Assembly: GCA_030615855.1 (NCBI GenBank)
Contig: JAUWYL010000002.1
Coordinates: 1,526-65,525 of the forward strand
Length of the DNA: 64,000 nt
Origin: a bacterium
GTDB lineage: Bacteria > UBP18 > UBA7526
Direction: 5' to 3'
The first letter of the stretch is position 1, and each line of letters begins with the position of its first letter. Under the pieces are notes generated by a model. It searched no databases, was not told where the DNA came from, and saw nothing but the letters and a program-made list of their open reading frames with translations. The translations under genes were made by a program, and so were the position numbers. Below are positions 17,926 through 62,220 of the stretch, in pieces.

Positions 17926-17941
17926 TTTGTAAATACCCTAT

Positions 17942-18023
17942 CGTTATACCTGTTATTCCCGTTAGACCCGTTATTTCCGTTCAACGGGCAAAACGGGCTC
18001 AACGGACGGAACGGACTAAACGC
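17942..18023. repeat. CCGTT / AACGG cassette
   Basis: cctgtta..cccgtta..cccgtta..tccgttc opposed by aacggg..aacggg..aacgga..aacgga. Confidence 0.7.
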
Positions 18024-20000: not shown

Positions 20001-20105
20001 TCTTTACCTCCTTCGCTTCGCTTACTCGGTAGTTAACCGTTTACCCGCTCGGCTTTTAGCCTCGCTGTTTACCGTACACCGTAAACCGTTAACCGTAAAC
20101 TATGC
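20001..20105. repeat. GTTTAC/GTAAAC heptamer cassette
   Basis: gttaaccgtttacc-[hairpin]-gtttaccgtacaccgtaaaccgttaaccgtaaac; CTTCGCTTCGC motif merged with the dnaK RBS. Confidence 0.8.
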
Positions 20106-20645: not shown

Positions 20646-20691
20646 CTCTTCCTACCTTGCTTCGCTCCTTCTCTTCTACTCTCCTATTCTA

Positions 20692-21720: not shown

Positions 21721-21731
21721 TCCTAGCTCCC

Positions 21732-21758
21732 TTAGCACTCATTGAATGAAAGTGCTAA
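21732..21758 (-). promoter_or_regulatory. CIRCE operator
   Basis: TTAGCACTC-N9-AAGTGCTAA, one mismatch to TTAGCACTC-N9-GAGTGCTAA, between the promoter and hrcA. Confidence 0.95.
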
Positions 21759-43500: not shown

Positions 43501-44863
43501 GAATCTTTATTCTGGCAGAAGGGATTATTCCTCCTCCGGCAAAAATAACATCGCCGGTCCAAAAAGGAAAAACAAGAACCAGAAAAAGTAGCATGAAAAT
43601 ACAGGCGGCAGATAAAAAAGAAAGGCTTCTGCTAAATCTCTTAGATAAAAAGTCAACAGTGGAACTTATTCCTAGTCCTAAAAGTGGCGTCAGGGCCAAG
43701 GTAAGCATTAACCCCCATTTTTGAATATTGGCCTTAAAGGCTGTCCCCAATAAAGGAATATGTTGATAGAACCAGATATTTACATTGGCTAAAGGGGGCT
43801 TGGCTCCTTTAACTAAAAATAATCCTACGATAGCTAAGATACTAAAATAGATACATCCCGTTCTTTTATATTCCGATCTCTTCAATAGGGGTAAGAAACT
43901 GAAAAAGGGAATCAAGAAACTTATCAGAATAAAGGGCCGGGTAAGATAAAATTTAGCCCAACGATAGTAAGGAACACCCTCCCATTCGCCATGTAGAGAC
44001 CAGAGGCCCCCTAATCTTAAGGCACCTAACAATTTTCCACTATTAAGTTTGAAAGTTTCTAAATTCGAAATGAACCCTAAGGAGGGGTCAGAAACCGCTC
44101 TTTGTTCTTCAAAAATGATGCTCCCATAGGGAATAATCCAGAATAGATTCAGAGATAGCCAGAGGATAATTAAAATAGATGTCAAGTAAACGGCCTGTTT
44201 TATAAGCCTGCGCTCTTTATTATTTATCAAGCAATAATAAAGTAAGTAAGAGAAGATAATAAACCAATGGACAATAGCAAGCGCCGGATTAGCATATCCA
44301 TAGGTTCCCATAACAAACCAGACAATTGCTAAAATGAAGATATATTTTAATCCCTTAGCAGAATTTAGGGATTTTATAAATAATCCTAAGATAAGGGGAC
44401 TTATGACATACGCTGGCATTAACATGCCAGAGGCCAAATGCCAGGGGATTTGAAGAACATAGGGATTCATCATATAGAAAAAAGAAGCAGCAAGTTTCGC
44501 TATCCTCTTAAACCCCAGAATAGAACAGAGATAATACATCGCTAAACCAGAAAGGGCAAACCAGAGATAAAACAACGATTTTTCAAAGAAGAGTAACGAT
44601 AATCCAATATGTTCTGTAAGGGCGGCATAGAGGGTATAGGGCATGAGAAAAGCTAATTGGCCTGGAGCAGGATAACCCAGAGAAATAGTATGGTCCCAAA
44701 AATATAAGGTATTATGAAAAAATTGTATTCTTGATAAAGGAAACCCAAAATCCCCTGTAGCAATAATAAAATTACCCCGGAACCAGGTTAGGGATAGAAG
44801 GCCTAAGAATAGTATTAATCCCATATCAAGAGATAGGATTTTGGTCCTGGCATTCACTTTCAT
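40571..44863 (-). CDS. 1430-aa membrane protein, N-terminal GT-C (DUF3367/AftD-like) region and large extracellular region with in-frame repeat inserts
   Basis: GDFGFP, FFYMMNPY, NLFWIIP, KGAKPP, GLLNVKYILLHRD, C-terminal VFSESYHEGW and HYLVNGYANGWW..FWPQ patterns. Confidence 0.65.
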   Translation of the reverse strand: MKVNARTKILSLDMGLILFLGLLSLTWFRGNFIIATGDFGFPLSRIQFFHNTLYFWDHTISLGYPAPGQLAFLMPYTLYAALTEHIGLSLLFFEKSLFYLWFALSGLAMYYLCSILGFKRIAKLAASFFYMMNPYVLQIPWHLASGMLMPAYVISPLILGLFIKSLNSAKGLKYIFILAIVWFVMGTYGYANPALAIVHWFIIFSYLLYYCLINNKERRLIKQAVYLTSILIILWLSLNLFWIIPYGSIIFEEQRAVSDPSLGFISNLETFKLNSGKLLGALRLGGLWSLHGEWEGVPYYRWAKFYLTRPFILISFLIPFFSFLPLLKRSEYKRTGCIYFSILAIVGLFLVKGAKPPLANVNIWFYQHIPLLGTAFKANIQKWGLMLTLALTPLLGLGISSTVDFLSKRFSRSLSFLSAACIFMLLFLVLVFPFWTGDVIFAGGGIIPSARIKIPEYYYRFKEWTGQGKDSERIFSLPLSKSYNTIYLWEDTGYSGGDIIRFFSAKPVIYTNTGRGYEIPLLLSKQIEEKPTQVRAKRLFGLLNVKYILLHRDINWALIKHHPWWFRHNLGNLTAFLNSQEGIKRDRNFGKLNLYKLDDEYFLPRIYSATSPVFIKGDVKTLVPLTYTRYLDNKPVLFFSEQQEEKVLEKLLFQSKAFTFSNSNPLDLTLQILEPDYGIKIEDSKKPVVFEAKEEGVYQVYTKNEKVKIEIKSLEQGAESRERILQAPNSKFQASGNQWRKIGEIELKRGKYKIRVEEAPQELVIVPEEKVIQGEDEIRDYLKKAEDSPTHLFSKELSSDIDSWEERSLKGSFYLPSSGKYSLRAKVSPQYVKAPDYGLKERIGKGWSFVPRNVKYFASTGKDILTVSTYFDGDAREREFLGLKRNIEPIDLEKYPSFEINYRLTNSGVQKIEIILGIDLDNDGKTDTRISEELPATLKKQFSRHSFNLYEKVRNSLSQSLSANTSFHLVKIYLKISKREGLDCSTFSDKGWYKTSFKNFRLYGFSEDKCVKSRNYAFNERICLIKKLKRRKSRIILSRSFENLDLEKYPYINLIHQNEDPRNLLVSMTLHLDFDADGKSDGKVTQEGIPTENIPLEALQLAKIEFPNRDHYYLVKLDIGLSKNSELDIEERELTRIATAKTQKETERRQEKQGRESVFLQHLQIYNEEILPYKKARPLPPILKVDQKKVLLIKSGYWYIASPIYLEEGYHNLEALFPGLESKLDFMAIGGREWSRIERGRESTQIKGTESKDGPEISFQKINPTKYRVKVKNATEPFWLVFSESYHEGWRAYVKKSKIKNQKSKIKEENFDEIIAEYPGLGVKEAKHLQKFTPGDIRYLFRKADIKEHYLVNGYANGWWVPIEQFKIKNEKLKIKDIENKPEEFEIILYFWPQSLFYLGLFISGATFVGCIGYLVGTGVRRRKRKTKSR

Positions 44864-46368
44864 TTTCTCTTATTGCCGCCCTCCCATAATGCAGCGATTC
44901 CTTTCTTCTCTATTGAAGTCGGATTTAAGATAAACCGGGAAAAATTTCTTCCCAGTTTTAAGATATAAGTGAAGTCTTCGAGAGATCTTATTTTATTCAG
45001 ATATCGCCAAGGTCTCTTGAGTCGGCTTCTCAAAAAACGAGAGAAGGCCTCTCCCTGGAGCTTTTTGAGTTCCTTATGGGTGAAATACTTAGTCTTGCAG
45101 CCCCGAACGACATTAAGAGCCCCAGTTTTGGGAAGTAAGCCCTCCTTAAGGTAAATATCATACATTGGAGTTCCGGGAAGAGGGTTAGCAATATAGAAAA
45201 TAGCAAAATCCAAGTAAGAATTAATAGCAAAGTTGATGGTATCCTCGATAGAATCAAGCTTTTCATAGGGAAAACCAATGATAAACGTTCCGATAGTCCA
45301 GAGACCAATATGATGGGCATATTTTATAATTGCCTGCGCATAGTTATAATTGTAATTCTTGCCCAGAAACTTCAGGGTTTTTTTATTACCAGATTCAAGA
45401 CCAAAGGTCAGACGATAGCACCCAGCTTGCTTCATTTTTCTCAGCAGTTCTTTATGGAGTAACCAAACCGCTATACCATTAGGTGTAGTCCATTTGATAT
45501 TAAGCTTTCGCTTAATAATTTCTTCGCATATTCCCATAAGTCGTTCCCTATCTACTGAAATACTATCGTCTAAGAAAGAAATCTCTTCTATATGATAATT
45601 CTTCACTAGTTCTTCGATTTCATCAACTACATTTTGAGGTGAACGGGCCCGCCATCTTCGGCCCCAAACCGTCTTGACGGCGCAAAAGATACAGTTTCCC
45701 GGACAGCCTCGGGAAGTAATTACGGTAGCCTCTCGCTTCCTCATTATATAATTGGTTCGGGTAGCAATTTCATGGAAATAAATATCCATTGGTAAAAGGT
45801 GACGTGCCGGAAAAGGCAGACTATTAAGCTCCTTAATAAAGGGGCGAGGTGGATTCTCAATTATCTTTCCCCTTTTGCGAATAAAGGTTCCCAGAATGTT
45901 ATCTAAGTTTTTTGTTTTTTTAAAGTTCTTAACAATTTCTAAAAAAGTGATTTCACCCTCTCCTTTAACAACAATATCAACATTTTTATCTTTTAAAACC
46001 TCGCAGGGATCTGAAGAAGGGTGGGCACCTCCCATTACCACCAAAATTTTGGGGTCAACCTCTTTGACTATTTTTGCCGTCCCATAGGCATCTCGGGCAT
46101 GAAGAGTAGATTGGCAGGTGATACCCACGATCTGAGGGGAATATTCTTTCAAGCGTTTCTTTATCTCTCTTATTCCCAAACCATAGCGCAATTTTTTTCC
46201 TACTATCCTTACTTCATGCGCCCCTTCAGCAGCAATATCTAAGACAAAAACATTAACTCCATGCTGCTCGAGATAGGCAGCTAAGTAGCCCAATCCCAAA
46301 ACGGGGCTCACTCCCCCCGGATCATCAGGATAAACGGTTAAAAATGGATTAAGAAGTAAAACCTTCAT
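44860..46368 (-). CDS. B12-binding-domain radical SAM protein
   Basis: LGLGYLAAYL, GGAHPS, GEGE, TSRGCPGNCIFC, GLESG; start set at ATG 46368. Confidence 0.9.
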   Translation of the reverse strand: MKVLLLNPFLTVYPDDPGGVSPVLGLGYLAAYLEQHGVNVFVLDIAAEGAHEVRIVGKKLRYGLGIREIKKRLKEYSPQIVGITCQSTLHARDAYGTAKIVKEVDPKILVVMGGAHPSSDPCEVLKDKNVDIVVKGEGEITFLEIVKNFKKTKNLDNILGTFIRKRGKIIENPPRPFIKELNSLPFPARHLLPMDIYFHEIATRTNYIMRKREATVITSRGCPGNCIFCAVKTVWGRRWRARSPQNVVDEIEELVKNYHIEEISFLDDSISVDRERLMGICEEIIKRKLNIKWTTPNGIAVWLLHKELLRKMKQAGCYRLTFGLESGNKKTLKFLGKNYNYNYAQAIIKYAHHIGLWTIGTFIIGFPYEKLDSIEDTINFAINSYLDFAIFYIANPLPGTPMYDIYLKEGLLPKTGALNVVRGCKTKYFTHKELKKLQGEAFSRFLRSRLKRPWRYLNKIRSLEDFTYILKLGRNFSRFILNPTSIEKKGIAALWEGGNKRK

Positions 46369-46369
46369 T

Positions 46370-47314
46370 CTATCTCCAGATATTCTCAACCTTACCGCCC
46401 ACGACGTATCGCAAGCCGTCAAAGCTTCCTTGCAGATGTGGCTTAAGGAATTGCCAACCACCATGGAAACGAATGATTTTATAGATAAAATAAAAGGTGA
46501 AGAGAGGAAAAAAGAAAAGCATAAAGATAATAAAATTTAATTTAGGTGCATGGTGCTTCATAAAAATTACCCTGTTTCTAGCAAAATAATAGGCTCTCAT
46601 GGGAAAATTAAACCCCATACCCCTGATTCCTTTAATACTCTCCTTTGAGCCCATTCGGTGCCAAAGTTTAGCCGTGGGACAAAAGATAACTTTAAAGCCG
46701 GCTTTTCGTGCCCGAAAACCATAATCAGTATCCCCATAGGTCATAAATAAAGCCTCATTATGCCCCTTAAGTTTATTAACTACTTTTCTAGTAGCTAAAT
46801 AGGCGGTAGGGGCAAATTGCGTTTCCCGAACTTGATCCCACTGTCCTTTATCCTCCTCATTAGCTCCGATATTTTTTGTTTGACTGGTTAAAAGATTCAC
46901 ATATGAACCAGCGTACCAAATCACATCTTTACAGTCATAGTAATACATTTTGGGGCAAACGACCCCTACCCGAGAATCATTTTCGGCTATTTTTGTAAGT
47001 TCAGTCAAAAGTTTTTTATCAACAATTGTATCGGAGTCCAGGAACAAGATATATTCCCCTTTAGCATACTTTTGCCCTAAATTTTTGCCACCATTGAGCC
47101 CCAGGTTCTCTTTTGCTACTACTACCTTAACCCTCGGAAATTTTTCTCTTACTGCCTGGGCTGTTCCATCACTTGAGGCATTATCTACCAAAATCACCTC
47201 AAAATTGGGATAATCCATCCTCAGAACCGAATTGAGGCAATCTAAGACAATACTTTTGCGATTTCTGGTGGTAATAATTATTGAAGCTAACTTTACATCC
47301 ATCTTTCTAACCAT
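46370..47314 (-). CDS. GT2-family glycosyltransferase
   Basis: IIITTRN, VDNASSDGT, FLDSD, YGDTDYGFR; start may be ATG 47302. Confidence 0.9.
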   Translation of the reverse strand: MVRKMDVKLASIIITTRNRKSIVLDCLNSVLRMDYPNFEVILVDNASSDGTAQAVREKFPRVKVVVAKENLGLNGGKNLGQKYAKGEYILFLDSDTIVDKKLLTELTKIAENDSRVGVVCPKMYYYDCKDVIWYAGSYVNLLTSQTKNIGANEEDKGQWDQVRETQFAPTAYLATRKVVNKLKGHNEALFMTYGDTDYGFRARKAGFKVIFCPTAKLWHRMGSKESIKGIRGMGFNFPMRAYYFARNRVIFMKHHAPKLNFIIFMLFFFPLFTFYFIYKIIRFHGGWQFLKPHLQGSFDGLRYVVGGKVENIWR

Positions 47315-49224: not shown

Positions 49225-50157
49225 TTATTTTATGTTTGTTTCACTATTACTTCCTAACAAGAGATAACTAAAGATAGGTCCTAAAATGAACACAAAAAAT
49301 AAGGTAACTACTCTGATCAATCCAGCAACTAATAAACTTTGAGCGGGAGTTATACTAAATATCTTGGCACCTAATATGATAACTCCTTCTGTGATACCTA
49401 AAGCACCTGGAGTTAGGTTTATTAAAGTTGAGAAGGATAAAAGGGTAGAAATTAGTAAACTTTTTAGCATTGAAATATCAATAGAGAAAGCCTGGAAAGC
49501 GAAATAAATACTATACAATTTTACCATAGAAATTAATAGAATTATCACCAGCAACTTAAAAGCAAGTTTCTGGTTACTTTTAATGCGGTACCAACTATTT
49601 ACAAAGTTACTAATGGTATTTAAACATCGATTGCCAAAATTCGGAATCTGGGGTGAAAAGATAATAATCAATGAAAGTACAAAGAATGCTACGCTAAAAA
49701 AAGAAAACAGGGGCAGATTAAAAATACCATAATGGAGATAGATTAACCCCATACATATTAGACCTATCAGGGAGTTAACAAAAAAAGTTATTAAATATAG
49801 GGCAGCCATGGTGCTTAAAAATGTAGCATAAGTGAAGTTGTGTCTTTTCTTTAAGTAAACGGCCCTTATCCCGGCACCACCACGGAAGGGCATAAGATAG
49901 TTTCCCATAGTAGAAACAACTGATAGGCCAAACCATTCTCTAAAAGTTAGTTTAACTTCAAAAGAATCCAGCAAAACCTTTGTGAAACATCCTAACAGAA
50001 CTAAATTTAAAAAAATCATAAAAACAAGAACCATTAATGGAAAAGGAGAAAGTTGAAAAATTTTTGTAAATTCTGGTAAATGTTGCTTAACATAAATAGC
50101 AATCAAGCCGATAATTATCAGCGAAATTACCCATGATAAACATATTTTTAGCTTCAT
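49225..50157 (-). CDS. Lysylphosphatidylglycerol-synthase TM / flippase-like membrane protein
   Basis: GNYLMPFRGGAGIRAVYLK, TPGALGITEG, 8-9 TM helices. Confidence 0.8.
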   Translation of the reverse strand: MKLKICLSWVISLIIIGLIAIYVKQHLPEFTKIFQLSPFPLMVLVFMIFLNLVLLGCFTKVLLDSFEVKLTFREWFGLSVVSTMGNYLMPFRGGAGIRAVYLKKRHNFTYATFLSTMAALYLITFFVNSLIGLICMGLIYLHYGIFNLPLFSFFSVAFFVLSLIIIFSPQIPNFGNRCLNTISNFVNSWYRIKSNQKLAFKLLVIILLISMVKLYSIYFAFQAFSIDISMLKSLLISTLLSFSTLINLTPGALGITEGVIILGAKIFSITPAQSLLVAGLIRVVTLFFVFILGPIFSYLLLGSNSETNIK

Positions 50158-50182: not shown

Positions 50183-50899
50183 CTATCCTTTTATTATTGG
50201 ATTCTGTTGGTCAAACTGCGTGCTTCTAATTTTTTTATTCAAATATAAAAATGAAAATAGATAAAACAAATAACTGTAAAGCGCAATCACTAAAAGGTAA
50301 AGTTTCATAGCATTAACAATGACAAATATTGTTGTTAGAAAATGAATATTTGTTCTACCATAAAGAAATAACCTCACAAACCGGCCTTTCGTTTTTAACT
50401 CCCTTTCCAGCTCAGAACTTCCATCAGGTAATTCCAATTTGGTTATAAAAAAAATAGTATCAACCAGCAGCCTTCCACTAACAGCAAACGCACAAAATAC
50501 CCATATTAAAGGTTCTGGTTTCATCCGATACAATCCAATAGATATTGCAATAAACAACAATGGATCGACAAATCTGTCAACAACAGAATCAAGCCATGCA
50601 CCATACACTGACGTTAAGGATTTCTCCTTGGCTATAAGACCATCGAGAAAATCAAATAATATTGACATATGAATACATACCAATCCGGCAAATAAATATC
50701 TCCACTCTCCTATCCCGAAAAACAACATCGCCAACATAGCAAGGATAAATCCGGCAAGTGTAATCTGATTAGGAGTTACCCTAAATTTTACAATTATACC
50801 TGAGAGCTTCTTCGTCAGCCACCAATAGGGAAGATTTGAATACTGAACTATATATGGATGAGTGTCTATAAATTTCTTGCCTTTACTTGTTACCATCAA
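50183..50899 (-). CDS. CDP-alcohol phosphotransferase family protein
   Basis: VTPNQIT and D-x2-DG-x2-A...G-x3-D-x3-D (FDFLDGLIAK..YGAWLDSVVD). Confidence 0.9.
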   Translation of the reverse strand: MMVTSKGKKFIDTHPYIVQYSNLPYWWLTKKLSGIIVKFRVTPNQITLAGFILAMLAMLFFGIGEWRYLFAGLVCIHMSILFDFLDGLIAKEKSLTSVYGAWLDSVVDRFVDPLLFIAISIGLYRMKPEPLIWVFCAFAVSGRLLVDTIFFITKLELPDGSSELERELKTKGRFVRLFLYGRTNIHFLTTIFVIVNAMKLYLLVIALYSYLFYLFSFLYLNKKIRSTQFDQQNPIIKG

Positions 50900-52062
50900 A
50901 TTTTTCCTTTCAATGACATATCCACAATAGTGGGGATTAAATTATCCCAATCGTATCTACGCACTGTCCTCATTCCATTCTTCTTCAACTTCTTTAACCT
51001 ATCACTGTCTTCGAACATTTTTATAATTGCTTTTGCTAACTCTTTATAATTACCAGAGTTATAAAAGATAATATTCGCTCCCTCATTGGAAACTTCTTCG
51101 ATCCCTTTTAATCTGGACGAGCATACTGCTGTTGCGCTTGCCCAGTATTCAAGGAGTTTTAAAGTCAGTACAAGATGATTCGGTAGAATGGGAATGCGTG
51201 TTATTACCCCTATATCAGCATCGGAAAGATATTTTTTAACATCTTGGTAAGGTAGCCATCCGGTAAAAACAAAATTTCCAGAGATTCCGAGTTCTTCCAC
51301 TCTTTTCCTAATATCATTCAGACAAGAACCCCCTCCTAAAATATAAATCTTTACACCAGTGCATTTCTTTAATATATAAGGCGTCGCTTCCACAAGGTCT
51401 ATCAGCCCGTCCCTTTCATCAATCCCTCCATGATGAATAATCCTTCTTTGCCTTCCCATTCTTACATCCGACATTAAACCTTTTACTTCTGCCCCATCAT
51501 AAACCACATACATCTTATCTTCTTTTATTCCTTTTTTTACCAGATGTTCCTTCATAGCTTGGGTTACTACTATTACGGTATCGCTTAACTTCCCTGTTGT
51601 ATATTCGAGAAACATCAATAACTTAACTGTACACCTTTTTAATCTTCCCTTAGCGTTAGCCAATAAATATTCGGTGCTTAAATCGGTAATATCCAAAATT
51701 ACCTTTTTTCTAAAAATCTTTGCCCAAAAAAGAACAGGTAAGGCAGCGACACTATTATGAACGAAAAATAGGTTAACTTTTGTCAAGCGTGGTATCAGAA
51801 GAAAAAATAATTGAAACACAAATAGAGCAGAATCAATAATAGGGCTTCTTTTGCCAGATAAGCCAAAAAGCCGGATTACTTTTATGCCTGAAAGATAGTT
51901 TTTATCAGAAGGAGCCATAATAATCACATTTTCTCCCCTCTTGGCAAACTCAATAGCAACTTTTCTTGTTCTTAAACCTCCTCCACGAGGTGGAGAAATT
52001 CTATCTTGTGTAGCTACTATGATTCTATTATAAACACCTTTCACGACTCTTCTTCTACCCAT
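50896..52062 (-). CDS. GT4-family glycosyltransferase
   Basis: RGGGLR, HHGGIDERDG, KLLEYWAS; GT-B pattern. Confidence 0.85.
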   Translation of the reverse strand: MGRRRVVKGVYNRIIVATQDRISPPRGGGLRTRKVAIEFAKRGENVIIMAPSDKNYLSGIKVIRLFGLSGKRSPIIDSALFVFQLFFLLIPRLTKVNLFFVHNSVAALPVLFWAKIFRKKVILDITDLSTEYLLANAKGRLKRCTVKLLMFLEYTTGKLSDTVIVVTQAMKEHLVKKGIKEDKMYVVYDGAEVKGLMSDVRMGRQRRIIHHGGIDERDGLIDLVEATPYILKKCTGVKIYILGGGSCLNDIRKRVEELGISGNFVFTGWLPYQDVKKYLSDADIGVITRIPILPNHLVLTLKLLEYWASATAVCSSRLKGIEEVSNEGANIIFYNSGNYKELAKAIIKMFEDSDRLKKLKKNGMRTVRRYDWDNLIPTIVDMSLKGKI

Positions 52063-53669: not shown

Positions 53670-55127
53670 TTACTCCGTTTGCTGCAACATACCTCGATAA
53701 TACAAATATCTCCTGAAAAAAGAACCAGTACCTCTAATTAATCTCTTCAAATCCTGGAATGAGCTAGAGTATCTAATCAATGTCTTAAGAATATAGCTGG
53801 GGCGGAGATAGAATTTCTTCCATGCTAAAGCGAAAGCTCTTTCCAAATCCTCTTTGCTCATTTCTGCCGTCACAATTACTGCTTTTGCTGCGCCATCAAA
53901 ATCTCGCCAGTTTTTTGCTTTTAATAAACCTTTTGATTTTAGTTGGCTATAATATTCAGTCCCAGGAAGTGGCGTCACAATTGAAAACTGAACAGCATAG
54001 GGGTCTAATTCTATAGCAAATTCAATTGTTTCATTAACTGTATCCCAATTTTCACCAGACAAACCAAACATAAATGTCCCATAATCTTTTATGCCAACCT
54101 CTTTTGTTATTCTAAAAGCTTCTCTTACTTGATTTAAGGTTATCTGTTTTTTACATCTATCAAGAATTTTTTGAGAACCAGACTCCACACCGTACTTGAT
54201 AAATTCGCACCCGGCTTCCTTCATTGCGCTTAACATCTCTCTGTCTACATCTACTCTTCCAAAACAACTCCAGGAAATCTTGATGCCTCTTTTTATTATC
54301 TCATTGCATATAGATACTACCCTCCTTTTCCCAATGGTAAAAGTATCATCATCAAATTCAATTGCCTTCACTCTGTACTTATCTTTTAAAATTTCTATCT
54401 CATCCACCACATTCTCGGCACTTCTTGTTCTTAATTTATGTCCATACATCACCTGCGGCCAAAGACAGTAAGTGCAACGATAAGGACAACCTCTGCTGGA
54501 TATCATAAGGACAGATGGCGATTTATATAAATGTGGGTCATAATATTTCATGTTAAACAAATGCCATGCTGGGAAAGGTAACTTGTCAAGGTCAGAAATC
54601 AACGGACGATCAGGATTCTCAACTACTTCTCCCTCTTTTCTAAAAGATAACCCCTTAATATTCTCTACTTTTTCACCATCTCTGAGGCACTTACACAAAT
54701 CAAGTATAGTATATTCAAATTCTCCTCTCAAAATATAATCAATATAGCCATAAGAGTCTAACAAGTCTTTTGAAAAATAAGTTGAATGTGCGCCAATCAG
54801 AGCAACTTTGGCTGACGAGTTTTCCTTTATCTTCTGTACCATTGATAAATCATTTTCGATAGAAGGAGTTGACGTTTCGACTATAACTAAACCATAAGAA
54901 TTCTTCTGGACGATTTCTGCCACCTTCTGTTCATCAAAATCCTCGGCTACCGCATCAACGAAGTCAACAGTAAACCCCTCTTTCTCCAACACCACCGCCG
55001 TATAGGCCATATAAATCGGGAATGGCAAAACTTTATCTTTCCGAGTATGGGGCCATCTACTATTACTTCTGACTCCATACCCTGATTCGCTATACCACGG
55101 AGGGTTTAAAAGCAAAATTTTAAACAT
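53670..55127 (-). CDS. B12-binding-domain radical SAM protein
   Basis: NPPW..SRWP N-terminus (HpnJ-like), GAHST, GEFE, SSRGCPYRCTYC, GVESG. Confidence 0.9.
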   Translation of the reverse strand: MFKILLLNPPWYSESGYGVRSNSRWPHTRKDKVLPFPIYMAYTAVVLEKEGFTVDFVDAVAEDFDEQKVAEIVQKNSYGLVIVETSTPSIENDLSMVQKIKENSSAKVALIGAHSTYFSKDLLDSYGYIDYILRGEFEYTILDLCKCLRDGEKVENIKGLSFRKEGEVVENPDRPLISDLDKLPFPAWHLFNMKYYDPHLYKSPSVLMISSRGCPYRCTYCLWPQVMYGHKLRTRSAENVVDEIEILKDKYRVKAIEFDDDTFTIGKRRVVSICNEIIKRGIKISWSCFGRVDVDREMLSAMKEAGCEFIKYGVESGSQKILDRCKKQITLNQVREAFRITKEVGIKDYGTFMFGLSGENWDTVNETIEFAIELDPYAVQFSIVTPLPGTEYYSQLKSKGLLKAKNWRDFDGAAKAVIVTAEMSKEDLERAFALAWKKFYLRPSYILKTLIRYSSSFQDLKRLIRGTGSFFRRYLYYRGMLQQTE

Positions 55128-55151: not shown

Positions 55152-56015
55152 TTACTCTTCACTCCTCTCCAATCTTAAGTTGGCTATCTGTTCGGCAATA
55201 AGGCCCATCATAAAAATTATCACTGCCGTTGTCATTAAAAATAGTGAAAGTCCGGTATATCTTCCTCCAGGAGTAGAGAAGATTTTGTAAATAGCGTGGG
55301 TCAAGCCCATAACAAAGAACATAAAACTCATAGGTAAAAACACGCGCAAAGGGGTAAACAAGGTGGCAATTCTTAATATTATTAGAATAAATTTTAGACC
55401 ATCGGATACTATATTTATCTTACTTTTTCCACTTCTTCTTTTCCTTGTTTTTATGGGAATATAGCCCACGCTGTATCCCGCCCGGAATAAAGCCAAGGTG
55501 ATGGTTGAAGGGTAGGAAAAATGATTGGGCAAAAGATATATGAACTTCTTTGCTACTTCCGCTTTTATTGCTCTGAAACCGCTGGTTAAATCCTGAACCT
55601 TTTCATTGCTAAGATAAGAAGCAAAACTGTTATATACTTTATTTGCCAATTTCCTATGCCCGGGAGCGGGTGAATCTTTCTGCCTTGCACCAACTACCAT
55701 ATCGTAGCGGGTTATCTGCTCTAAAATCCTGGGGATATCATCAGGGTTATGTTGTCCATCGCCATCCATGGTTATCCATACATCTCCCCTGGCCTTCCTC
55801 ATTCCGGTCTTAACAGACGCGCCATTGCCTTTATTATAAGGATGGCTAATCAGTAAGGCACCAGCCTTTTTCGCCTCCTCCCCGGTATTGTCACAGGAAC
55901 AATCATCTACCACAACAACCTGGTCATTTTCACCTATGACTGACTTCACCTCTCTCACTAAATTACCGATAACCAACTCCTCATTATATGCCGGAATTAT
56001 AACCGTTACCTTCAT
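55152..56015 (-). CDS. GT2 polyprenol-phosphate glycosyltransferase-like protein
   Basis: IIPAYNEE, VDDCSCD, NKGNGA, MDGDGQH, DLTSGFRA, two C-terminal TM helices. Confidence 0.88.
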   Translation of the reverse strand: MKVTVIIPAYNEELVIGNLVREVKSVIGENDQVVVVDDCSCDNTGEEAKKAGALLISHPYNKGNGASVKTGMRKARGDVWITMDGDGQHNPDDIPRILEQITRYDMVVGARQKDSPAPGHRKLANKVYNSFASYLSNEKVQDLTSGFRAIKAEVAKKFIYLLPNHFSYPSTITLALFRAGYSVGYIPIKTRKRRSGKSKINIVSDGLKFILIILRIATLFTPLRVFLPMSFMFFVMGLTHAIYKIFSTPGGRYTGLSLFLMTTAVIIFMMGLIAEQIANLRLERSEE

Positions 56016-58027
56016 TTTGGACTCCCTTCACTAATTTCTATTACTTTGTATAACCTATTAGAATAGAGTATATTTAGAAACTCTTTTTGTTTCACATGAT
56101 CCATTAATATTTCGAAATACTTATTATCAACCAGTAATAGCCAATGGGTAAAATATTTTTTAGTCGAATCTGTAACCTTTCCTCCGGGAAATTTCTCTTC
56201 CAACCATTTTCCCTTATTATCCATTACACACTTGGCTTCTAAATAACGATCTCTATCTGAAATCAGAAAGGTAGCTATGCAAGACTCATGCTTTCCGCTA
56301 GCAAATTTATCACCCAACAGTACCAGACGTTTTTTGATATTGTTTCTTTGAATAAACCGAATAGCTCTAACATAGTATTCGTTCCACATAATACGTACCT
56401 TATATTCTTCATCATAGAAGTATAAATTGTTCACATCATAACACACTTCCTCAAACCAGTGGTCAAGTTCGGTCTTGGTAGAGGTAGTAATTTGATGAAA
56501 ATTGTATAAGTAATATTCAAAACCTATGAGGATCATGATTAAAACTAACCAAATATATCTAAATCGTAAATAAATAAAATGGCATACGAAATAAATCATC
56601 AAGGCTAAAAATAAGGATAAAAAAAGAAATTCAAGAAGATATGTTCGCCCTATACCACCAATAACACTAAGACTAAGCCAATTAATTATATACTTCGTGC
56701 CATAAAAATGTATGCAATAATATAAAATAGCAATAAAACTTATTCCAATGATATACCACGAAAGATGCTTACGAATAAAATTGATAAGAGAAGAATAAAA
56801 TTTCTGAATCAAGAGACACATTGCATATAAAAACAAAAGAACAAAACCAATCAGACAGATAATTTTCATAGGTTCGTAACGGCCACCCGTCGAATTAAGC
56901 TGCATTCCCCAATGATTGATAAATAAAAAAATCATGATAAAAGCTGTATTCAATTTAAATTCTCTACGAGAATCATAACCTGAGAACATAATAGGCAGAC
57001 TTAGCGCAGCGATAAAATAATATAGTGGATTGAAATGATAATAATGGGTTATTAACATAAAATTTACCGAAAGTAAGATTAGCATATAAACCAATTTCTC
57101 TTCCAATGAAAAACTTGTTTGCCCGGAAACATAAATTAAAGAAAAAATTAAAAGAGTAAATAAATAAGTGGCAATCCAGGCTCCCAAAAAATTATAAAAA
57201 TATATAGCCTGTATTACATCAAAACCAAATATACCGGGCAGTCGAAATATTTTGAAGACAACGATAATAACGGTGAGAATGGTTAAAAAGGAGGAGAGGA
57301 AAAAATTCAGATTCGCTTTCGGACGTCGGGTCAACAATAAAAATATCATAACGATATTCAAGATGGAAAGATAGATGAACATTGCTATGACAAAATTTAA
57401 TATCGGGACAAATTGTATTTTACCAAATATTGACAATAAATAAAAAACAGGGGCAAATAGCAAATAATATTTATACAATCCGCCAACATTGCTAAAATCA
57501 AAGCCATAGCCACCTTCACCAAATTTGTCAAAATAGGACCATCTAAACAACATCATTTGAGCATAATTATTTTCGTCCACATTCCCGAAAAAAGTATCTG
57601 GCTTCTCAAGTGGAATCAAAAAACCTGGAGTAAAATATAGAATGGCAAACAACAAGAGCATTATTAGCGCTAAAAAACCAATGGATGAATAAGAAAATGA
57701 TTTAATCCATTTCCAGAATATGTTCTTAACGCTTGAGGTCAATTTTTTAAACGTTGGAAATGCGAGATAGACCAAAAATGCGCTTCCCAAAAAATATAAT
57801 ATGTCACCAGAAATCATACCGATTGGAGAATCCCAGTAATATATATGATGTTCCCAGGGAATAAAAAGAGAGAAAAGAAAGGATAGGCCATACTTCCCTT
57901 GCCGATGAAGAATGGGACCGATAGCGAATATCCTAATCATAATATAGGCAAATAATAACATGAAGTTAATAATAAATGAAGCATAAAAATATGTTGAAAA
58001 AAAACTATTCTCAATCTCTTTTTTCAT
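56012..58027 (-). CDS. Multi-pass membrane protein, unknown function (GT-C-like topology)
   Basis: 671 aa, more than 10 hydrophobic helices, extracytoplasmic VDENNY motif; ATGA-type overlap with the downstream gene. Confidence 0.6.
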   Translation of the reverse strand: MKKEIENSFFSTYFYASFIINFMLLFAYIMIRIFAIGPILHRQGKYGLSFLFSLFIPWEHHIYYWDSPIGMISGDILYFLGSAFLVYLAFPTFKKLTSSVKNIFWKWIKSFSYSSIGFLALIMLLLFAILYFTPGFLIPLEKPDTFFGNVDENNYAQMMLFRWSYFDKFGEGGYGFDFSNVGGLYKYYLLFAPVFYLLSIFGKIQFVPILNFVIAMFIYLSILNIVMIFLLLTRRPKANLNFFLSSFLTILTVIIVVFKIFRLPGIFGFDVIQAIYFYNFLGAWIATYLFTLLIFSLIYVSGQTSFSLEEKLVYMLILLSVNFMLITHYYHFNPLYYFIAALSLPIMFSGYDSRREFKLNTAFIMIFLFINHWGMQLNSTGGRYEPMKIICLIGFVLLFLYAMCLLIQKFYSSLINFIRKHLSWYIIGISFIAILYYCIHFYGTKYIINWLSLSVIGGIGRTYLLEFLFLSLFLALMIYFVCHFIYLRFRYIWLVLIMILIGFEYYLYNFHQITTSTKTELDHWFEEVCYDVNNLYFYDEEYKVRIMWNEYYVRAIRFIQRNNIKKRLVLLGDKFASGKHESCIATFLISDRDRYLEAKCVMDNKGKWLEEKFPGGKVTDSTKKYFTHWLLLVDNKYFEILMDHVKQKEFLNILYSNRLYKVIEISEGSPK

Positions 58028-58151: not shown

Positions 58152-59024
58152 CTACTTTCCAATGTTTTCTAAAATTCTCACCATACTTTTTTTGTCTATT
58201 CTTCTAGGGCCATCGTTAATCTTATTGTATCCCATAATCTTGTCTGCAATCATTTCAACGTTAAAATTCTTTATCTTTGGTGGAATAAAGGATCTCTTCA
58301 ATAATGTAACTAATTCTTCCGTTGAACCAAGATTAAACAATTCTGGTAATCCTTCAAAATCCATATATTCGACAAAATGAGGAAGTAACATTCCACAGGC
58401 AGTTCCATGGCTGACACCATATTTGATTGTGATAGGATAGGATGCAGCATGCACAACATTTGTTTTAGCTATTGCTATCGCTTGCCCAGCCAGATTTCCA
58501 GTAGTTATTAACTTGTTAATATCATTTTTGCTTAAGTGGTGACTGAGCTTATTTAAATATTTGTTAATCAAATAGATGGCTTTTTTTGAGTAGTTTTTGC
58601 TTTGCAAAGTAGCATTTTTGGACCAAAGAGATTCTATAGCATGAGACAAAGCGTCAAAAGTAGTTGACTGCCTAACACTAAAGGAGAGAGCTTTAGGCAT
58701 CCTGTAATCCATTTTTAGTACTGGCTTTTTTGTAGGGATGGATATTTTTTCTCTTCCCCAGACAGTAGCATAAGGGGTCATAGATGCTCCGGCAGCAGTT
58801 GTGGGAATTGCTATACATCTTTTATCTTTAGAAATAATTTTCGCCGCATCTATAACACTTCCTCCACCAACGCCTATAACTACATCTTTACTATTTTTTA
58901 TCTCTAATACTTCTTCAGTTGGTGGTTTTGTAATCTTTAAAAAACTTACATCTCTATATTTTTTTGAAATCAGTTTTGCATAATCCTTCGTATGCTTGCT
59001 ATGAATTATCAGAGCAGATTGCAT
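58152..59024 (-). CDS. Iron-containing alcohol dehydrogenase, candidate phosphonoacetaldehyde reductase
   Basis: GGGSVIDAAK, PTTAAGAS, DALSHAIES, HAASYP..HG; start set at ATG 59024; adjacent to ppd/pepM. Confidence 0.85.
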   Translation of the reverse strand: MQSALIIHSKHTKDYAKLISKKYRDVSFLKITKPPTEEVLEIKNSKDVVIGVGGGSVIDAAKIISKDKRCIAIPTTAAGASMTPYATVWGREKISIPTKKPVLKMDYRMPKALSFSVRQSTTFDALSHAIESLWSKNATLQSKNYSKKAIYLINKYLNKLSHHLSKNDINKLITTGNLAGQAIAIAKTNVVHAASYPITIKYGVSHGTACGMLLPHFVEYMDFEGLPELFNLGSTEELVTLLKRSFIPPKIKNFNVEMIADKIMGYNKINDGPRRIDKKSMVRILENIGK

Positions 59025-59475
59025 TTCTAAATCGCCTCTTGATTTGTTTTGGTGACAAAGGTATTCTTGGTGCATCGCCTTTTTCTTTGCTAACCTTCAG
59101 GACCACTGTATTTGGTGCAATTTTTGCAAAATTAATAACATCAGAGCAAGTTGGCTGTGCGCCAGTCGAACTATGGCAACCGTTATCTAAAATGTAATGC
59201 TTTAGATTTTTTGGATTTAACTTTTTATGCAACGCTAATGTTCCCAGAGACATAAGTGTCTCTGCATCTCCCGATATGACAATAACCTTATGCTTTGAAT
59301 TAATAGCAATTCCCAGTCCGATTCCTAAAGTGCATCCCATGCTACCTTGCACATAGAAATTTCTCGGCCTGTCTTTTACAGCATAAAGCTCCCTAGAAAT
59401 CATTCCTGTAGAAGATATGATTATCTCATCTTTTACATTCTTTACTATTTTTCTAATGGCATCAATTCGTTTCAT
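58999..59475 (-). CDS. Phosphonopyruvate decarboxylase, TPP-binding (beta/ComE-like) subunit
   Basis: TGMISRELY, FYVQGSMG, GDA..MSLG, LDNG.HSSTG.QPT. Confidence 0.88.
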   Translation of the reverse strand: MKRIDAIRKIVKNVKDEIIISSTGMISRELYAVKDRPRNFYVQGSMGCTLGIGLGIAINSKHKVIVISGDAETLMSLGTLALHKKLNPKNLKHYILDNGCHSSTGAQPTCSDVINFAKIAPNTVVLKVSKEKGDAPRIPLSPKQIKRRFRNAICSDNS

Positions 59476-59810
59476 TGTATCAGGAGTTTACAATTTTTGT
59501 ATTCTAATAGTTTTAACAACCTCTTGGTGATTTTCCCCATAAAAGCGTGATGTTTAGGTTTATTTCTAACACTGATCAATAAATCTATTTTTATATCATA
59601 CGGTTTTAATAATGAGGTTATTATATCAACCATATTTCCTAGTCCACTGTTCTGGAGAAATACAAGGGGCTTCTTCCCTACCAAATAGGCACCCACAGCT
59701 AAAGCCATAGCCTCGTCTTCCCTTGTGCAGGGAATATAGTTCTCTATTTTGTCTGTGAAATCCTTTAATCTTGAACCGGGCACTCCCACGATAAAATTAT
59801 ATTTTTTCAT
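59472..59810 (-). CDS. Phosphonopyruvate decarboxylase, alpha (ComD-like) subunit
   Basis: GVPGS.LK, REDEAMALAVGAYL, LQNSGLGN. Confidence 0.88.
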   Translation of the reverse strand: MKKYNFIVGVPGSRLKDFTDKIENYIPCTREDEAMALAVGAYLVGKKPLVFLQNSGLGNMVDIITSLLKPYDIKIDLLISVRNKPKHHAFMGKITKRLLKLLEYKNCKLLIQ

Positions 59811-61087
59811 CTTGTTCCATACCTCCGGTCAATCTCTTCCACTTCTCTAATTGGCGTTAAGTCTCTCATATCATCCAAAGTAGCAGATAATTCTTTCTCT
59901 ACAGGGTAGACAGAATCGTGTTTTTTTATAATTTTCAAGCTTTCTCTTATTGCTTTGATTTTAACCCTTTCTGTCTGGTTAGCCAGAACTATCACCGAGA
60001 ATCCCGCATTAAATAATTGTTTATTTGTAAGTTGGGGAAATTTAGTGGGAACTATAACTAATGGAATCTTTGATTTCCAATACTTGGGTATTTCCAAAGC
60101 CTCTTTACCAGTCGATTCCCTACTATGGGTTAACACCATATCTGCCCCGGACTTAACATAATGCTCTGCTCTTTTAATAGCCTCAGCCATTCCATAACCT
60201 CTTATCAACGCTTCTGTTCTTGCTACTATTACAAAGTCCTTCGTTTTTTGGGCATCTTTTCCAACTCTAATTTTTGCCCCATGTTCTTCCATAGACAACA
60301 ATGGTATTTTCCCGCCCCACAGTGAATTTATTTTGGGAAAAATATTATCTTCCACACAAATCCCCGAGCATCCTATTTTTTCAAATTCTTTTACGGTTCT
60401 TATGAAATTATGAAGCCCTCCATATCCATTGTCCACGTCTACCAAAACCGGAAGGCTGGTAGCGTCAACAATTGTCTTGGCTGCGTTTAACATTTCAGTC
60501 ATAGTGATACATCCATTATCCGCCAAGCCCAATCTTGCCGATGCTTCAAATCCGGAAACCCAGATTCCATCAAATTCTGCTTCTTCTATCAACTTAGCAG
60601 TTATCGCATCACCGGCCGAAACTATCACCAGCTTTTTCTTCTTTTCTAATAAGTAGTTAAGTCTTTTTGTTCTTCTTATTTCCTGTAGCAGTTTTGTAGT
60701 TGTAATATATGGATAACATTCAACCTGTACAACTCTACATAATTTCTGTTCTTCTGCTTTTTTATATAAAGGTGGAAGCCAGTCATCTCCATGAACAGCT
60801 ATTGATACTTTATATTTCTTCAGATTATCAAACATTGTTGGCTCTCTTAAATCCATGCAGTCTTCCACGACTTTATCAACTTCCCTTATAGACTCTATTA
60901 TCTTTTTTCTGTCTTCAAAAGGTATGAGTGGTTCTCTTTTGTATCTTTTGATGACATCATCTGGATGTAAACCAATAATCAAGAAATCCCCTAATTTCTT
61001 CGCCTTTTTTATAAGTTCTAAGTGGCCGCGATGAAATAAATCACCGCCCATAGTTGCATATACCACTTTTTTATTTTTCATTTTCAT
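59807..61087 (-). CDS. pepM: Cytidylyltransferase-phosphoenolpyruvate mutase fusion
   Basis: N-terminal DLFHRGH (HxGH) cytidylyltransferase; C-terminal DGIWVSG, DVDNGYG, EDNIFPKINSL, ARTEAL, HSR, VPTK. Confidence 0.9.
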   Translation of the reverse strand: MKMKNKKVVYATMGGDLFHRGHLELIKKAKKLGDFLIIGLHPDDVIKRYKREPLIPFEDRKKIIESIREVDKVVEDCMDLREPTMFDNLKKYKVSIAVHGDDWLPPLYKKAEEQKLCRVVQVECYPYITTTKLLQEIRRTKRLNYLLEKKKKLVIVSAGDAITAKLIEEAEFDGIWVSGFEASARLGLADNGCITMTEMLNAAKTIVDATSLPVLVDVDNGYGGLHNFIRTVKEFEKIGCSGICVEDNIFPKINSLWGGKIPLLSMEEHGAKIRVGKDAQKTKDFVIVARTEALIRGYGMAEAIKRAEHYVKSGADMVLTHSRESTGKEALEIPKYWKSKIPLVIVPTKFPQLTNKQLFNAGFSVIVLANQTERVKIKAIRESLKIIKKHDSVYPVEKELSATLDDMRDLTPIREVEEIDRRYGTR

Positions 61088-61095: not shown

Positions 61096-62220
61096 TTAGT
61101 TGACTTCTTCATTAGTTCTACCTCCAAAATCCTGAATTAGCAAAGCAGCAATATCTTTATTCTCACTTATTTGCGAAGCATTAAATCTACTCCCATAAGC
61201 AATGAGGGGAATCTTTTGTTCGTGGATTGAACCGTGGGATCTAATATTTACCTCTTCAAAATCCTTCCTTAATCTTCCAAAGACTGTATTCTTATCAGCT
61301 AAAACAAAAATATCTCCTATTCTTTGAGGAAACAAATTATATCTTTGGCTGGCCTCCTGTCGGGAAATCACTTCCTCTACGCCCTCAAGATGCAATAGGA
61401 TGGCTATGGCTTGATCAAAATCGGACTTCTTCTCAAGATAGATATAAGCAGCACCCCCCATATTCTGATGATGGATAATATAGCGGTCCTTAATAATAGG
61501 AATTACTTCACATTGAATTTCCTGATCTGCCAAAATTCTACCAAGATCCAATGCTTTCGTCTTATTAGACATTCCGTGATCTGCGGTAATAATAGTTTCT
61601 ATATTAGAATCAATATTTACTATTTTGCCTATTAACCTATCGATTTCTTGTAGATAATACTCAGATTGTGCATCCCCGGGTTTAAACTTATGCATAACAT
61701 AATCCGTAGTACTAAGATACATCAAATCAATGAATTTTTTAGATAGAAGCTCACAGGCGGCCTTCAAGAGCCATAGATCTGCTTCTATTGAATAGATCGA
61801 AGGAGGAGGTCCAATTTTATCAATAATCCACTTTAAAGGTCTTTCTACTGACATAGAGATACTTGTTCCTCTATTTAAAAGTATTCTTAATTTATCTTTT
61901 GAGGTCAGGAGAGCAGAACTTCTCCCCACCGCTTTCCCTTTTTCAAAAATAGTCTCAGTCAGAATATAGTCCGCTGATTCCATATAAGTCCCTTTACCAG
62001 TTTTGGGATTCAAAAAATAATTTGCCGTAATACCGTGGATTTTGGGATAGGTACCGGTCACCAATGAGACATTATTTATATTGGTCACCGTAGGCACCAT
62101 AGCCCGAATTTCTTTATAAAATCCTTCTTTTGCCAGGCGGTCCAGATTAGGAGTAGGGCTCTTCTCAATATACTCTGGACTACATCCATCCAGGCAGATA
62201 AAAAGTAACTTCTTATTCAC
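61096..62220 (-). CDS. Phosphonoacetate hydrolase-like alkaline-phosphatase-superfamily enzyme
   Basis: LDGC, PTVTNINNVSLVTG, YLSTTDYVMH, TADHGM, RSHG match the PhnA pattern. Confidence 0.78.
   Translation of the reverse strand: MNKKLLFICLDGCSPEYIEKSPTPNLDRLAKEGFYKEIRAMVPTVTNINNVSLVTGTYPKIHGITANYFLNPKTGKGTYMESADYILTETIFEKGKAVGRSSALLTSKDKLRILLNRGTSISMSVERPLKWIIDKIGPPPSIYSIEADLWLLKAACELLSKKFIDLMYLSTTDYVMHKFKPGDAQSEYYLQEIDRLIGKIVNIDSNIETIITADHGMSNKTKALDLGRILADQEIQCEVIPIIKDRYIIHHQNMGGAAYIYLEKKSDFDQAIAILLHLEGVEEVISRQEASQRYNLFPQRIGDIFVLADKNTVFGRLRKDFEEVNIRSHGSIHEQKIPLIAYGSRFNASQISENKDIAALLIQDFGGRTNEEVN

Follow-up and report, generated by a model that had tools for sequence, protein, structure and literature searches.

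The Locus and Its Genes

The window analyzed here is a stretch of 64,000 nucleotides of contig JAUWYL010000002.1 (assembly GCA_030615855.1), from a bacterium of the UBP18 lineage (UBA7526). Its list of open reading frames (ORFs) holds a block of four genes between positions 61087 and 58152, all on the minus strand and with overlapping or abutting ends. They encode (i) a cytidylyltransferase (CyTase) fused to a phosphoenolpyruvate (PEP) mutase (PepM); (ii) and (iii) two subunits of a predicted phosphonopyruvate (PnPy) decarboxylase (Ppd); and (iv) a short Fe/Zn alcohol dehydrogenase (ADH) (Table 1). A preliminary description had named the fusion, Ppd, and the Fe-ADH at this place, and all four ORFs do have Pfam or NCBIfam matches, with E-values far beyond chance. 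It had also recognized a CDP-alcohol phosphotransferase further downstream, which is recovered by PF01066 (E 6.9e-12), and nearby glycosyltransferases (GTs), which are present around that transferase as GT2 and GT4 types. Two features were missing from it, the PhnA-like gene at 61096-62220 and the EDN (not EDK) motif of the mutase. The question considered here is whether these genes could make and attach CMP-activated 2-hydroxyethylphosphonate (HEP).

Table 1. Features of the phosphonate locus and examples of unfused EDN loci (window positions, or positions within the locus named).
Feature	Position	Strand	Basis
Bifunctional cytidylyltransferase-PEP mutase	59807-61087	-	PF01467, PF13714, TIGR02320
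Cytidylyltransferase domain, residues 16-123, HRGH (HxGH) and ITTT motifs	60719-61042	-	PF01467
PEP mutase domain, residues 146-386	59930-60652	-	PF13714
Mutase signature EDNIFPKINS, variant of EDKx5NS (K116N)	60323-60352	-	translation
Phosphonopyruvate decarboxylase alpha-like subunit, 112 aa, thiamine diphosphate (TPP) pyrimidine-binding domain	59472-59810	-	TIGR03297, PF02776
Phosphonopyruvate decarboxylase beta-like subunit, 158 aa, TPP diphosphate-binding domain	58999-59475	-	TIGR03297, PF02775
Short Fe/Zn alcohol dehydrogenase, likely phosphonoacetaldehyde reductase, 290 aa	58152-59024 (longest ORF to 59075)	-	TIGR03405
PhnA-like alkaline-phosphatase-superfamily protein	61096-62220	-	TIGR02335, 1ei6 alignment
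CDP-alcohol phosphotransferase, candidate CMP-HEP:acceptor phosphonyl transferase	50183-50899	-	PF01066
LPG_synthase_TM/flippase-like membrane protein, likely transferase partner	49225-50157	-	PF03706 (E 2.2e-29)
GT4 glycosyltransferase, may build the acceptor	50896-52062	-	PF13692, PF00534, PF13439
Unfused EDN locus, L024	8973-10888		
Unfused EDN locus, L044	8984-10876		
Unfused EDN locus, L069	9010-10882		

Identity of the Mutase and Cytidylyltransferase Domains

The database start of the fusion protein is M3, which gives a protein of 424 aa. Its N-terminal part matches CTP_transf_like (PF01467, E 2.5e-17) and its C-terminal part PEP_mutase (PF13714, E 2.3e-53). Among NCBIfam models, PEP mutase (TIGR02320, 252.5 bits) ranks above phosphonopyruvate hydrolase (PPH, 182.2 bits) and methylisocitrate lyase (152.6 bits). 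The mutase domain scores 196 bits against the Mytilus PepM (1m1b) and is identical to it at the catalytic and Mg-site residues D58, D85, D87, E114, K120, N122, S123, R159, and H190 (Mytilus numbering). At the site that separates PepM from PPH, it reads KINS, with the PepM-type Asn, in contrast to the Thr of KDTS in PPH (2dua; full motif EDKTFPKDTS). When mutase cores were placed in a neighbor-joining (NJ) tree, the clade of fusion proteins (63% bootstrap) fell within the PepM/PPH radiation, distant from the carboxy-PEP mutase outgroup and apart from PPH, with the deep nodes unresolved. Thus, neither the tree nor the Asn at the PPH Thr site groups the domain with PPH or other isocitrate lyase (ICL)-family enzymes, the outcome that the preliminary description had named as contrary to its proposal. 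A PnPy-consuming partner is also at hand, as the Ppd subunits lie directly downstream of PepM in the window and in 11 related loci.

The EDNx5NS form of the signature is shared by 119 of the 120 closest database homologs (the remaining one reads EDSISPNKNS), and it is therefore not a sequence error of the window. The Asn of EDN is invariant in a 15-sequence alignment reaching down to 50% identity. The substituted residue, K116, is not known to be among those that act in Mytilus PepM catalysis. A perfect match to EDKx5NS has served as the definition of PepM in three surveys (PMC6697681, PMC8942020, PMC12723261). Because these inventories require EDKx5NS, the EDN clade falls outside all three.

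In the CyTase domain, the N-terminal HxGH motif is found in 92 of the 120 closest homologs, and residues H17, G19, H20, and T129 are invariant across 15 homologs. The domain scores 62 bits against the CyTase domain of Fom1 (5x3d) and 52 bits against the best ECT domain. The label "Fom1-like" given in the preliminary description thus suits the architecture of the protein and does not extend to a fosfomycin-type pathway. Among the relatives, P0108 has the CyTase most like that of Fom1; it was considered as a fosfomycin cluster and rejected, since the gene is phage-borne.

A Second, Unfused EDN Clade

A scan of the genome collection with the EDN pattern returned 164 relatives, and the fused ones have Ppd and ADH adjacent. 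A separate clade of unfused EDNx5NS proteins (L016-L083) occurs in Actinomycetota, Chloroflexia, and KSB1, and a Ppd neighbor is nearly absent from it. In all four of the loci inspected (L024, L040, L044, and L069), the EDN gene directly follows a conserved gene of ~320 aa, which is a D-2-hydroxyacid dehydrogenase by Pfam in three of them. The dehydrogenase is a candidate phosphonopyruvate reductase, and its family includes the published phosphonopyruvate reductase VlpB. VlpB-like dehydrogenases have been treated as the phosphonolactate branch point (PMC8942020). The unfused clade probably represents a phosphonolactate-type pathway, which EDK filters would also miss. Two EDN clades, each tied to a different candidate PnPy-removing enzyme, form the pattern expected of true PEP mutases. 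On balance, the EDNx5NS mutases seem to be fully active PEP mutases in at least two sizeable clades, whose producers would be missing from environmental-phosphonate estimates and could be an unrecognized source of HEP in natural organic matter.

A Split Decarboxylase and a Short Dehydrogenase

The decarboxylase is small, with 270 residues divided between two chains as opposed to ~375-389 in annotated AepY proteins. Alignment with four annotated aepY proteins shows that the linker domain in the middle and a C-terminal segment of 29 residues are missing, and that it retains the catalytic Glu, QNSGLGN, GSMG, and the GD(G/A)...LDNG TPP motif. The alpha subunit scores 86 bits against TIGR03297 vs. 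76.5 bits against sulfopyruvate decarboxylase alpha (ComD), and the beta subunit 140.7 bits against TIGR03297 vs. 146 bits against sulfopyruvate decarboxylase beta (ComE), all four scores being below their cutoffs; the assignment as Ppd over sulfopyruvate decarboxylase is made from gene context. Among relatives, Ppd beta is 73–88% identical, and the alpha subunit is conserved beside PepM.

The ADH is a group III Fe-ADH, in which the GGGS motif and the Asp/His/His/His metal ligands are retained. Its best family is the phosphonate-linked Fe-ADH TIGR03405, at 111 bits (cutoff 423.7), followed by the next family at 62 bits. It has ~290 residues rather than the usual ~370, being without ~37 N-terminal residues and two internal insertions, and its N-terminal domain is ~60 residues shorter. 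Identity to the proteins annotated in RefSeq as "phosphonoacetaldehyde reductase" in Segatella copri and Fulvitalea is 29–31%. The start is likely M18 at 59024, since the ADH gene would then overlap the gene before it by 26 nt, just as it does in the Elusimicrobia relative L001.

As the preliminary description had noted for 2-aminoethylphosphonate (AEP) transaminase, no aminotransferase was found among the window ORFs of at least 150 aa, nor by tblastn with three AEP-transaminase-type queries. Since the ADH takes the place of the transaminase, HEP rather than AEP would be the expected product. The specificity of the CyTase for HEP is deduced solely from the presence of this ADH and the absence of a transaminase, and the CyTase substrate may differ among relatives, as one virus-like contig (L086) has a class-V aminotransferase (Aminotran_5) in place of the ADH. 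ORFs of the same size range in the window likewise include no aldehyde dehydrogenase, HAD phosphonatase, cupin, LicD, TagF-like protein, or second cytidylyltransferase, and tblastn of the window with representatives of most of these families (cupins not included) gave no match.

CMP-Releasing Transferases

In ~10 of 12 distinct loci, the cassette has a phosphotransferase of a CMP-releasing type next to it or close by, and three unrelated families are represented. These are the TagF-like CDP-glycerol glycerophosphotransferase family (L084/L004, L011, and L014), the CDP-alcohol phosphotransferases (CDP-OH PTs), found directly after the ADH in L006/7 and a few genes off in L001/8 and L009, and LicD (L010, L085, and L086). 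L014, a metagenome-assembled genome (MAG) of Endomicrobiales, has a CyTase-PepM gene followed directly by a TagF-like transferase (10001-12477). Within this locus, which extends 10 kb to the upstream side and 7 kb to the downstream side, no Ppd or ADH was detected, which suggests that the fate of phosphonopyruvate differs there.

The CDP-OH PT of the window carries the motif D83FLD86G87LIA90K...G100AWLD104SVVD108, matching DxxDGxxAR...GxxxDxxxD with Lys for Arg. Of these residues, D83, D86, G87, A90, and G100 do not vary, and D104 and D108 hardly do. The subfamily is small, with five 50%-cluster representatives at E 1e-30 among 1.84 billion. A metagenome scan with the single transferase sequence gave no match, and a 15-sequence alignment was too divergent for searching; 80 metagenomic relatives were fetched with a 5-sequence alignment. 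The closest of these (L097) comes from a locus with a methyltransferase, the CDP-OH PT, PepM, a Ppd fragment, and an LPG_synthase_TM protein. Its PepM is of the canonical EDK type and fused to a LicC-type nucleotidyltransferase, and its LPG_synthase_TM protein is 50% identical to the flippase-like protein 49225-50157 of the window. In L140, L143, and L158, PepM-Ppd-ADH directly abuts the transferase, and L165 has Ppd.

A nucleotidyltransferase is located beside or fused to the transferase in 40 of the 80 subfamily members, so that the subfamily typically appears to use a CDP-alcohol from a dedicated partner. For the window transferase, this partner could only be the PepM-fused CyTase, because it is the sole cytidylyltransferase in the window. 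Together with the relatives of the transferase that abut PepM, these data support the link between transferase and cassette across 7 kb as better than coincidence. They also support the proposal of the preliminary description that CMP-activated HEP is transferred to a surface glycan, glycoprotein, or lipid, and every step of its reasoning open to examination was upheld. The genes of the GT4 and the transferase share 4 nt. Among acceptors, a membrane lipid or glycolipid is slightly favored over a glycan, since a CDP-OH PT paired with an LPG-synthase-domain protein is the hallmark of a large family of Burkholderiales AEP clusters thought to make phosphonolipids.

Proposed Pathway

The domain identities, catalytic residues, gene order, and association with CMP-releasing transferases are established directly, and from them the block 61087-58152 is probably a self-contained cassette for the biosynthesis of CMP-HEP, feeding envelope attachment via the CDP-OH PT. 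The scheme that follows is predicted at every chemical step, as are the CyTase substrate and the acceptor. The PEP mutase domain would convert PEP to phosphonopyruvate, and the two-subunit TPP decarboxylase would then yield phosphonoacetaldehyde, drawing the unfavorable equilibrium of the first step forward. The short metal-dependent ADH is proposed to reduce phosphonoacetaldehyde to HEP. From HEP and CTP, the N-terminal CyTase domain could form CMP-HEP, a phosphonate analog of a CDP-alcohol. The CDP-OH PT would subsequently move the hydroxyethylphosphonyl group onto a membrane-associated acceptor hydroxyl with release of CMP. A lipid, or a glycolipid produced by the GT4 whose gene is translationally coupled, is the most probable acceptor. 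Finally, the adjacent MprF-type flippase-like protein may bring the product to the outer face.

Distribution and Mobility of the Cassette

The four-gene cassette is conserved at 46–88% identity in Elusimicrobia, Omnitrophota, MAGs of other uncultured lineages, and phage contigs, nearly always in glycan loci. The same gene order is found in Elusimicrobia (L001/L008, L004/L084, and L011), Omnitrophota (L002/L012, L005, and L006/7), a MAG labeled Planctomycetia (L009), and MAGs labeled archaeal (L010 and L015, one of them Woesearchaeota).

In the window, the first 23.6 kb carries bacterial housekeeping genes (PBP, MraW, RNase P RNA, rpoD, dnaG, MiaB-like, dnaJ-dnaK-grpE-hrcA, and lepA). A lower-GC island extends from ~23.8 kb to the window end, with a GC content of 0.31-0.40 in the last 26 kb vs. 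0.45-0.50 in the first 12 kb. Identity to the Omnitrophota MAG L002 is 72% for the fusion protein, in contrast to 60% for DnaK. This contrast, along with the drop in GC, suggests horizontal spread of the cassette. An hrcA-grpE-dnaK-dnaJ operon adjoins the glycan/phosphonate locus both in the window (16750-21738) and in L002 (1-4030).

The cassette is also carried by viruses. In a 13-kb SU10-like phage contig (L177), it is located between the portal and major capsid genes (3373-6164). Two virus-like contigs of ~100 kb have LicD and GTs; one of them (L085) has the cassette and a family B polymerase (PolB), and in the other (L086, which is L178 of IMG/VR) the aminotransferase mentioned above replaces the ADH. 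In total, EDN-type mutases are present in sixteen IMG/VR contigs (L178-L193).

Neighboring Genes in the Island

The PhnA-like gene lies 8 bp upstream of the fusion gene and belongs to the same packed block, which is flanked by gaps of 226 and 124 bp. Its product aligns over its full length with the Pseudomonas fluorescens PhnA (1ei6; 185 bits), retaining the Thr nucleophile, the metal-site DHG, and KDK, and scores 243.6 bits against TIGR02335, below the equivalog cutoff of 407.55. Relatives of ~50% identity sit in apparently catabolic Aminotran_5-Aldedh-HAD-PhnA clusters. Adjacency to PepM recurs only in a very close relative (L093/L094; PhnA-like protein 87%, fusion 93–95% identical). As a conserved partner of the cassette, the PhnA-like protein was rejected, being absent from all 83 other cassette or EDN loci. 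It may serve in proofreading, in salvage, or in hydrolysis of CMP-HEP or an HEP ester.

Every gene of the second half of the window is on the minus strand. By Pfam, the island contains GT2 and GT4 glycosyltransferases, ManC, and phosphomannomutase (PMM), and its other genes encode three S-adenosylmethionine (SAM) methyltransferases, an asparagine-synthase-type amidotransferase, several large membrane proteins, and two B12-binding radical SAM (rSAM) proteins (53670-55127 and 44860-46464, both minus strand). The first of these rSAMs resembles HpnJ, which catalyzes hopanoid ring contraction, over its full length (357 bits, below the cutoff) and the dehydratase AprD4 at 105 bits, and reaches 23–42 bits with TokK, TsrM, and CysS, B12 methylases of known structure. 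With the HpnL-like flippase-like protein, this HpnJ-like rSAM lends the glycan island a partial hopanoid-type "Hpn" flavor. B12-rSAM genes are also found near the cassette in L001, L002, L005, and L009, at only 26–32% identity to those of the window.

Directly downstream of the ADH, in the stretch of lowest GC (0.31), lies a gene for a polytopic membrane protein of 671 aa (56012-58027, minus strand). It has no Pfam match and no homolog other than itself among 5.8 billion proteins, and its single-sequence AF2 model (mean pLDDT 47.6) is too poor to use. The preliminary description had assigned GT-C-like membrane proteins to the island; this was not borne out by the 671-aa protein or by the YfhO-like protein at 34480-36444, whose YfhO match is sub-threshold. 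The latter is adjoined by a tandem pair of DUF3108 genes (32484-33296 and 33601-34437, minus strand). A 1430-aa ORF within the island (40571-44863, minus strand) has no Pfam match. A promoter and terminator scan gave no excess over shuffles, and Rfam identified only RNase P and two tRNAs in the window, all outside the cassette.

Alternative Explanations

Several observations weigh against the proposed route. Eight genes and 7 kb separate the transferase from the cassette, its identity to the PepM-linked examples is only 22–39%, and PepM or Ppd is present in only ~5 of the 80 loci of its subfamily. In L002/L012 and L015, no CMP-releasing transferase was found within 10 kb of the cassette. The decarboxylase subunits match sulfopyruvate decarboxylase about equally well, and the scheme gives no task to the PhnA-like gene, a member of the same packed block. 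The mutase reads EDNIFPKINS without the canonical EDKx5NS, and its 252.5 bits are under the TIGR02320 equivalog cutoff of 319.55. The separation of transferase and cassette would suit an arrangement in which CMP-HEP is made and another enzyme (the 671-aa protein or a GT) places the group on a polysaccharide or glycoprotein, while the CDP-OH PT and the flippase-like protein make an unrelated inositol/glycerol-type phospholipid. The best NCBIfam matches of the transferase are archaetidylinositol-phosphate and phosphatidylinositol-phosphate (PIP) synthases (68 bits), the slot after the ADH that is filled by a transferase in relatives holds the 671-aa membrane protein in the window, and the known HEP conjugates are glycans (PMC8942020). 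However, these synthase matches are far under their cutoffs (170–180 bits), the window contains no further cytidylyltransferase as a partner for another CDP-alcohol, and both the transferase and the flippase-like protein have their closest relatives in PepM loci. A transferase role of the 671-aa protein, which has neither homolog nor recognizable domain, is unsupported. This arrangement is thus considered unlikely, and attachment via the CDP-OH PT is preferred.

A more basic doubt concerns the mutase itself. The departure from the literature motif EDKx5NS (PMC6697681, PMC12723261), the score below the equivalog cutoff, and the position relative to EDK PepMs that the NJ tree leaves unresolved would all be compatible with an EDN domain of another ICL-superfamily activity, e.g., hydrolysis or lysis of a phosphonate or oxo-acid, in a module not meant for C-P bond formation. 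On the other hand, all Mytilus PepM catalytic residues are kept, including N122 (Thr in PPH), genes for a PnPy decarboxylase and a phosphonate-type ADH closely accompany the clade, and the other EDN clade is associated with another candidate PnPy consumer, a D-2-hydroxyacid dehydrogenase. It is very unlikely, then, that the domain is not a PepM. Slighter still is the chance that HEP or CMP-HEP leads on to a small-molecule phosphonate natural product, with a B12-rSAM acting like Fom3 to give 2-hydroxypropylphosphonate, as the coexistence of homologs of Fom1, Fom2, and FomC with two B12-rSAMs and three SAM methyltransferases in one co-directional array, and the recurrence of B12-rSAM genes near the cassette, might suggest. 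The rSAM 53670-55127 is HpnJ/AprD4-like and only weakly similar to B12 methylases, and the rSAMs adjacent to the cassette elsewhere are too dissimilar to be conserved partners; Fom3-like methylation of CMP-HEP was rejected as unsupported on these grounds, the comparison having been made with TokK, TsrM, and CysS, not Fom3. In addition, no cupin/HppE-, HEPD-, or FomD- (DUF402-) type ORF was found among the window ORFs of at least 150 aa, and the cassette is surrounded by GTs, ManC, PMM, and flippase-like genes. Finally, the ADH and the PhnA-like hydrolase could be catabolic (HEP to phosphonoacetaldehyde, phosphonoacetate, and then acetate and Pi), making the block partly one for phosphorus scavenging. 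PhpC-type ADHs do form HEP-degradation clusters with phnY-phnA (PMC13576164), and the catalytic residues and ~50%-identity relatives of the PhnA-like protein would fit with this. But the window has no PhnY aldehyde dehydrogenase, PhnX phosphonatase, or transporter, in every relative the ADH goes together with PepM-Ppd, unlike the PhnA-like gene, which is absent from 83 related loci, and Ppd is an irreversible biosynthetic step, so that a catabolic role is barely credible.

Comparison with Known Systems

The early steps of fosfomycin biosynthesis in Streptomyces wedmorensis (Fom1/Fom2/FomC) resemble the predicted pathway in the fusion of an N-terminal PF01467 domain to PepM, in the same three activities, and in the expected product CMP-HEP. 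The CyTase of Fom1 makes CMP-HEP, and PF01467-Ppm fusions are common (PMC6697681). Unlike the fosfomycin cluster, the window lacks a Fom3-like methylase and any Fom4- or FomD-type ORF of at least 150 aa, lies in a glycan/lipid island, and has a split 270-aa Ppd, a 290-aa ADH, and the EDN motif.

According to RefSeq annotation, the logic is shared by cultured Bacteroidota. Segatella copri DSM 18205 (plasmid NZ_CP085933) and Fulvitalea axinellae (pFA2) have a nucleotidyltransferase-fused aepX, aepY, and a phosphonoacetaldehyde reductase followed by a transferase. In S. copri, the cassette is followed by a TagF-like gene and an O-antigen polymerase in a polysaccharide locus, and in Fulvitalea by LicD. 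These modules differ in their EDK motif (EDKTGLKKNS), single-chain Ppd of 375 aa, ADH of ~370 aa, and transferase family, and their proteins are only 29–33% identical to those of the window.

The "CDP-OH family" AEP clusters of Burkholderiales (PMC8942020; Mycetohabitans example) share PepM, Ppd, a CDP-alcohol phosphatidyltransferase, and an LPG-synthase-domain protein, and are presumed to make a phosphonolipid. Where the window has the ADH, these clusters carry an AEP transaminase and a 2OG oxygenase, leading to AEP or hydroxy-AEP, and their cytidylyltransferases are LicC-type (PF12804). Orthology of the CDP-OH PT/flippase pair of the window to the Burkholderiales pair was rejected, as ~22% identity indicates a relationship at the family level only. 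An LPG-synthase-domain gene also follows aepY in Roseomonas.

HEP on the phosphonoglycan of Stackebrandtia nassauensis and Glycomyces is reportedly the only isolated HEP ester of a surface polysaccharide or exopolysaccharide (Yu et al., 2014, as cited in PMC8942020 and PMC13576164). These organisms share the PhpC-type ADH branch point, and differ as Actinomycetota with an EDK-type PepM. The PhnA-like protein aligns full-length with the PhnA proteins of P. fluorescens (1ei6) and S. meliloti (3szy), but its gene sits in a biosynthetic block without PhnY or PhnW; HEP catabolism via PhpC-type ADHs and PhnY-PhnA is documented (PMC13576164).

In function, the system of the window corresponds to the "phosphonyl tailoring" described by Rice et al. 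(PMC6697681), to the HEP branch point of Li and Horsman (2022, PMC8942020), and to the first Fom1/Fom2/FomC steps. Its kind is not new, for cultured Bacteroidota already have the same gene logic in their annotation, and glycans bearing HEP are known (PMC8942020). By the EDKx5NS definition of the surveys, it would not count as a straightforward family member either. It is distinguished by the EDN signature, the miniaturized split Ppd and short ADH, the pairing of HEP (not AEP) with CDP-OH PT and flippase, and the lineage-specific PhnA-like neighbor.

Significance

Phosphonates are a significant and poorly sourced share of environmental organic phosphorus, in which HEP is thought to be mainly a polysaccharide substituent (PMC13576164). 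Apart from its motif, the locus is unexceptional as a case of the "nucleotidyl activation then transfer" logic put forward earlier for phosphonate tailoring, with a mechanism that would not surprise a specialist. If the proposed pathway is correct, the cassette would represent a compact and transferable route from PEP to CMP-HEP, of ~980 residues over four proteins, for HEP-decorated envelopes, and its carriers would be abundant uncultured anaerobes and their phages. The motif by which surveys define PepM leaves a blind spot, in that it would reject the entire EDN clade. If the EDN mutases are active, anaerobes of candidate phyla and their viruses are missing from current estimates of phosphonate producers.

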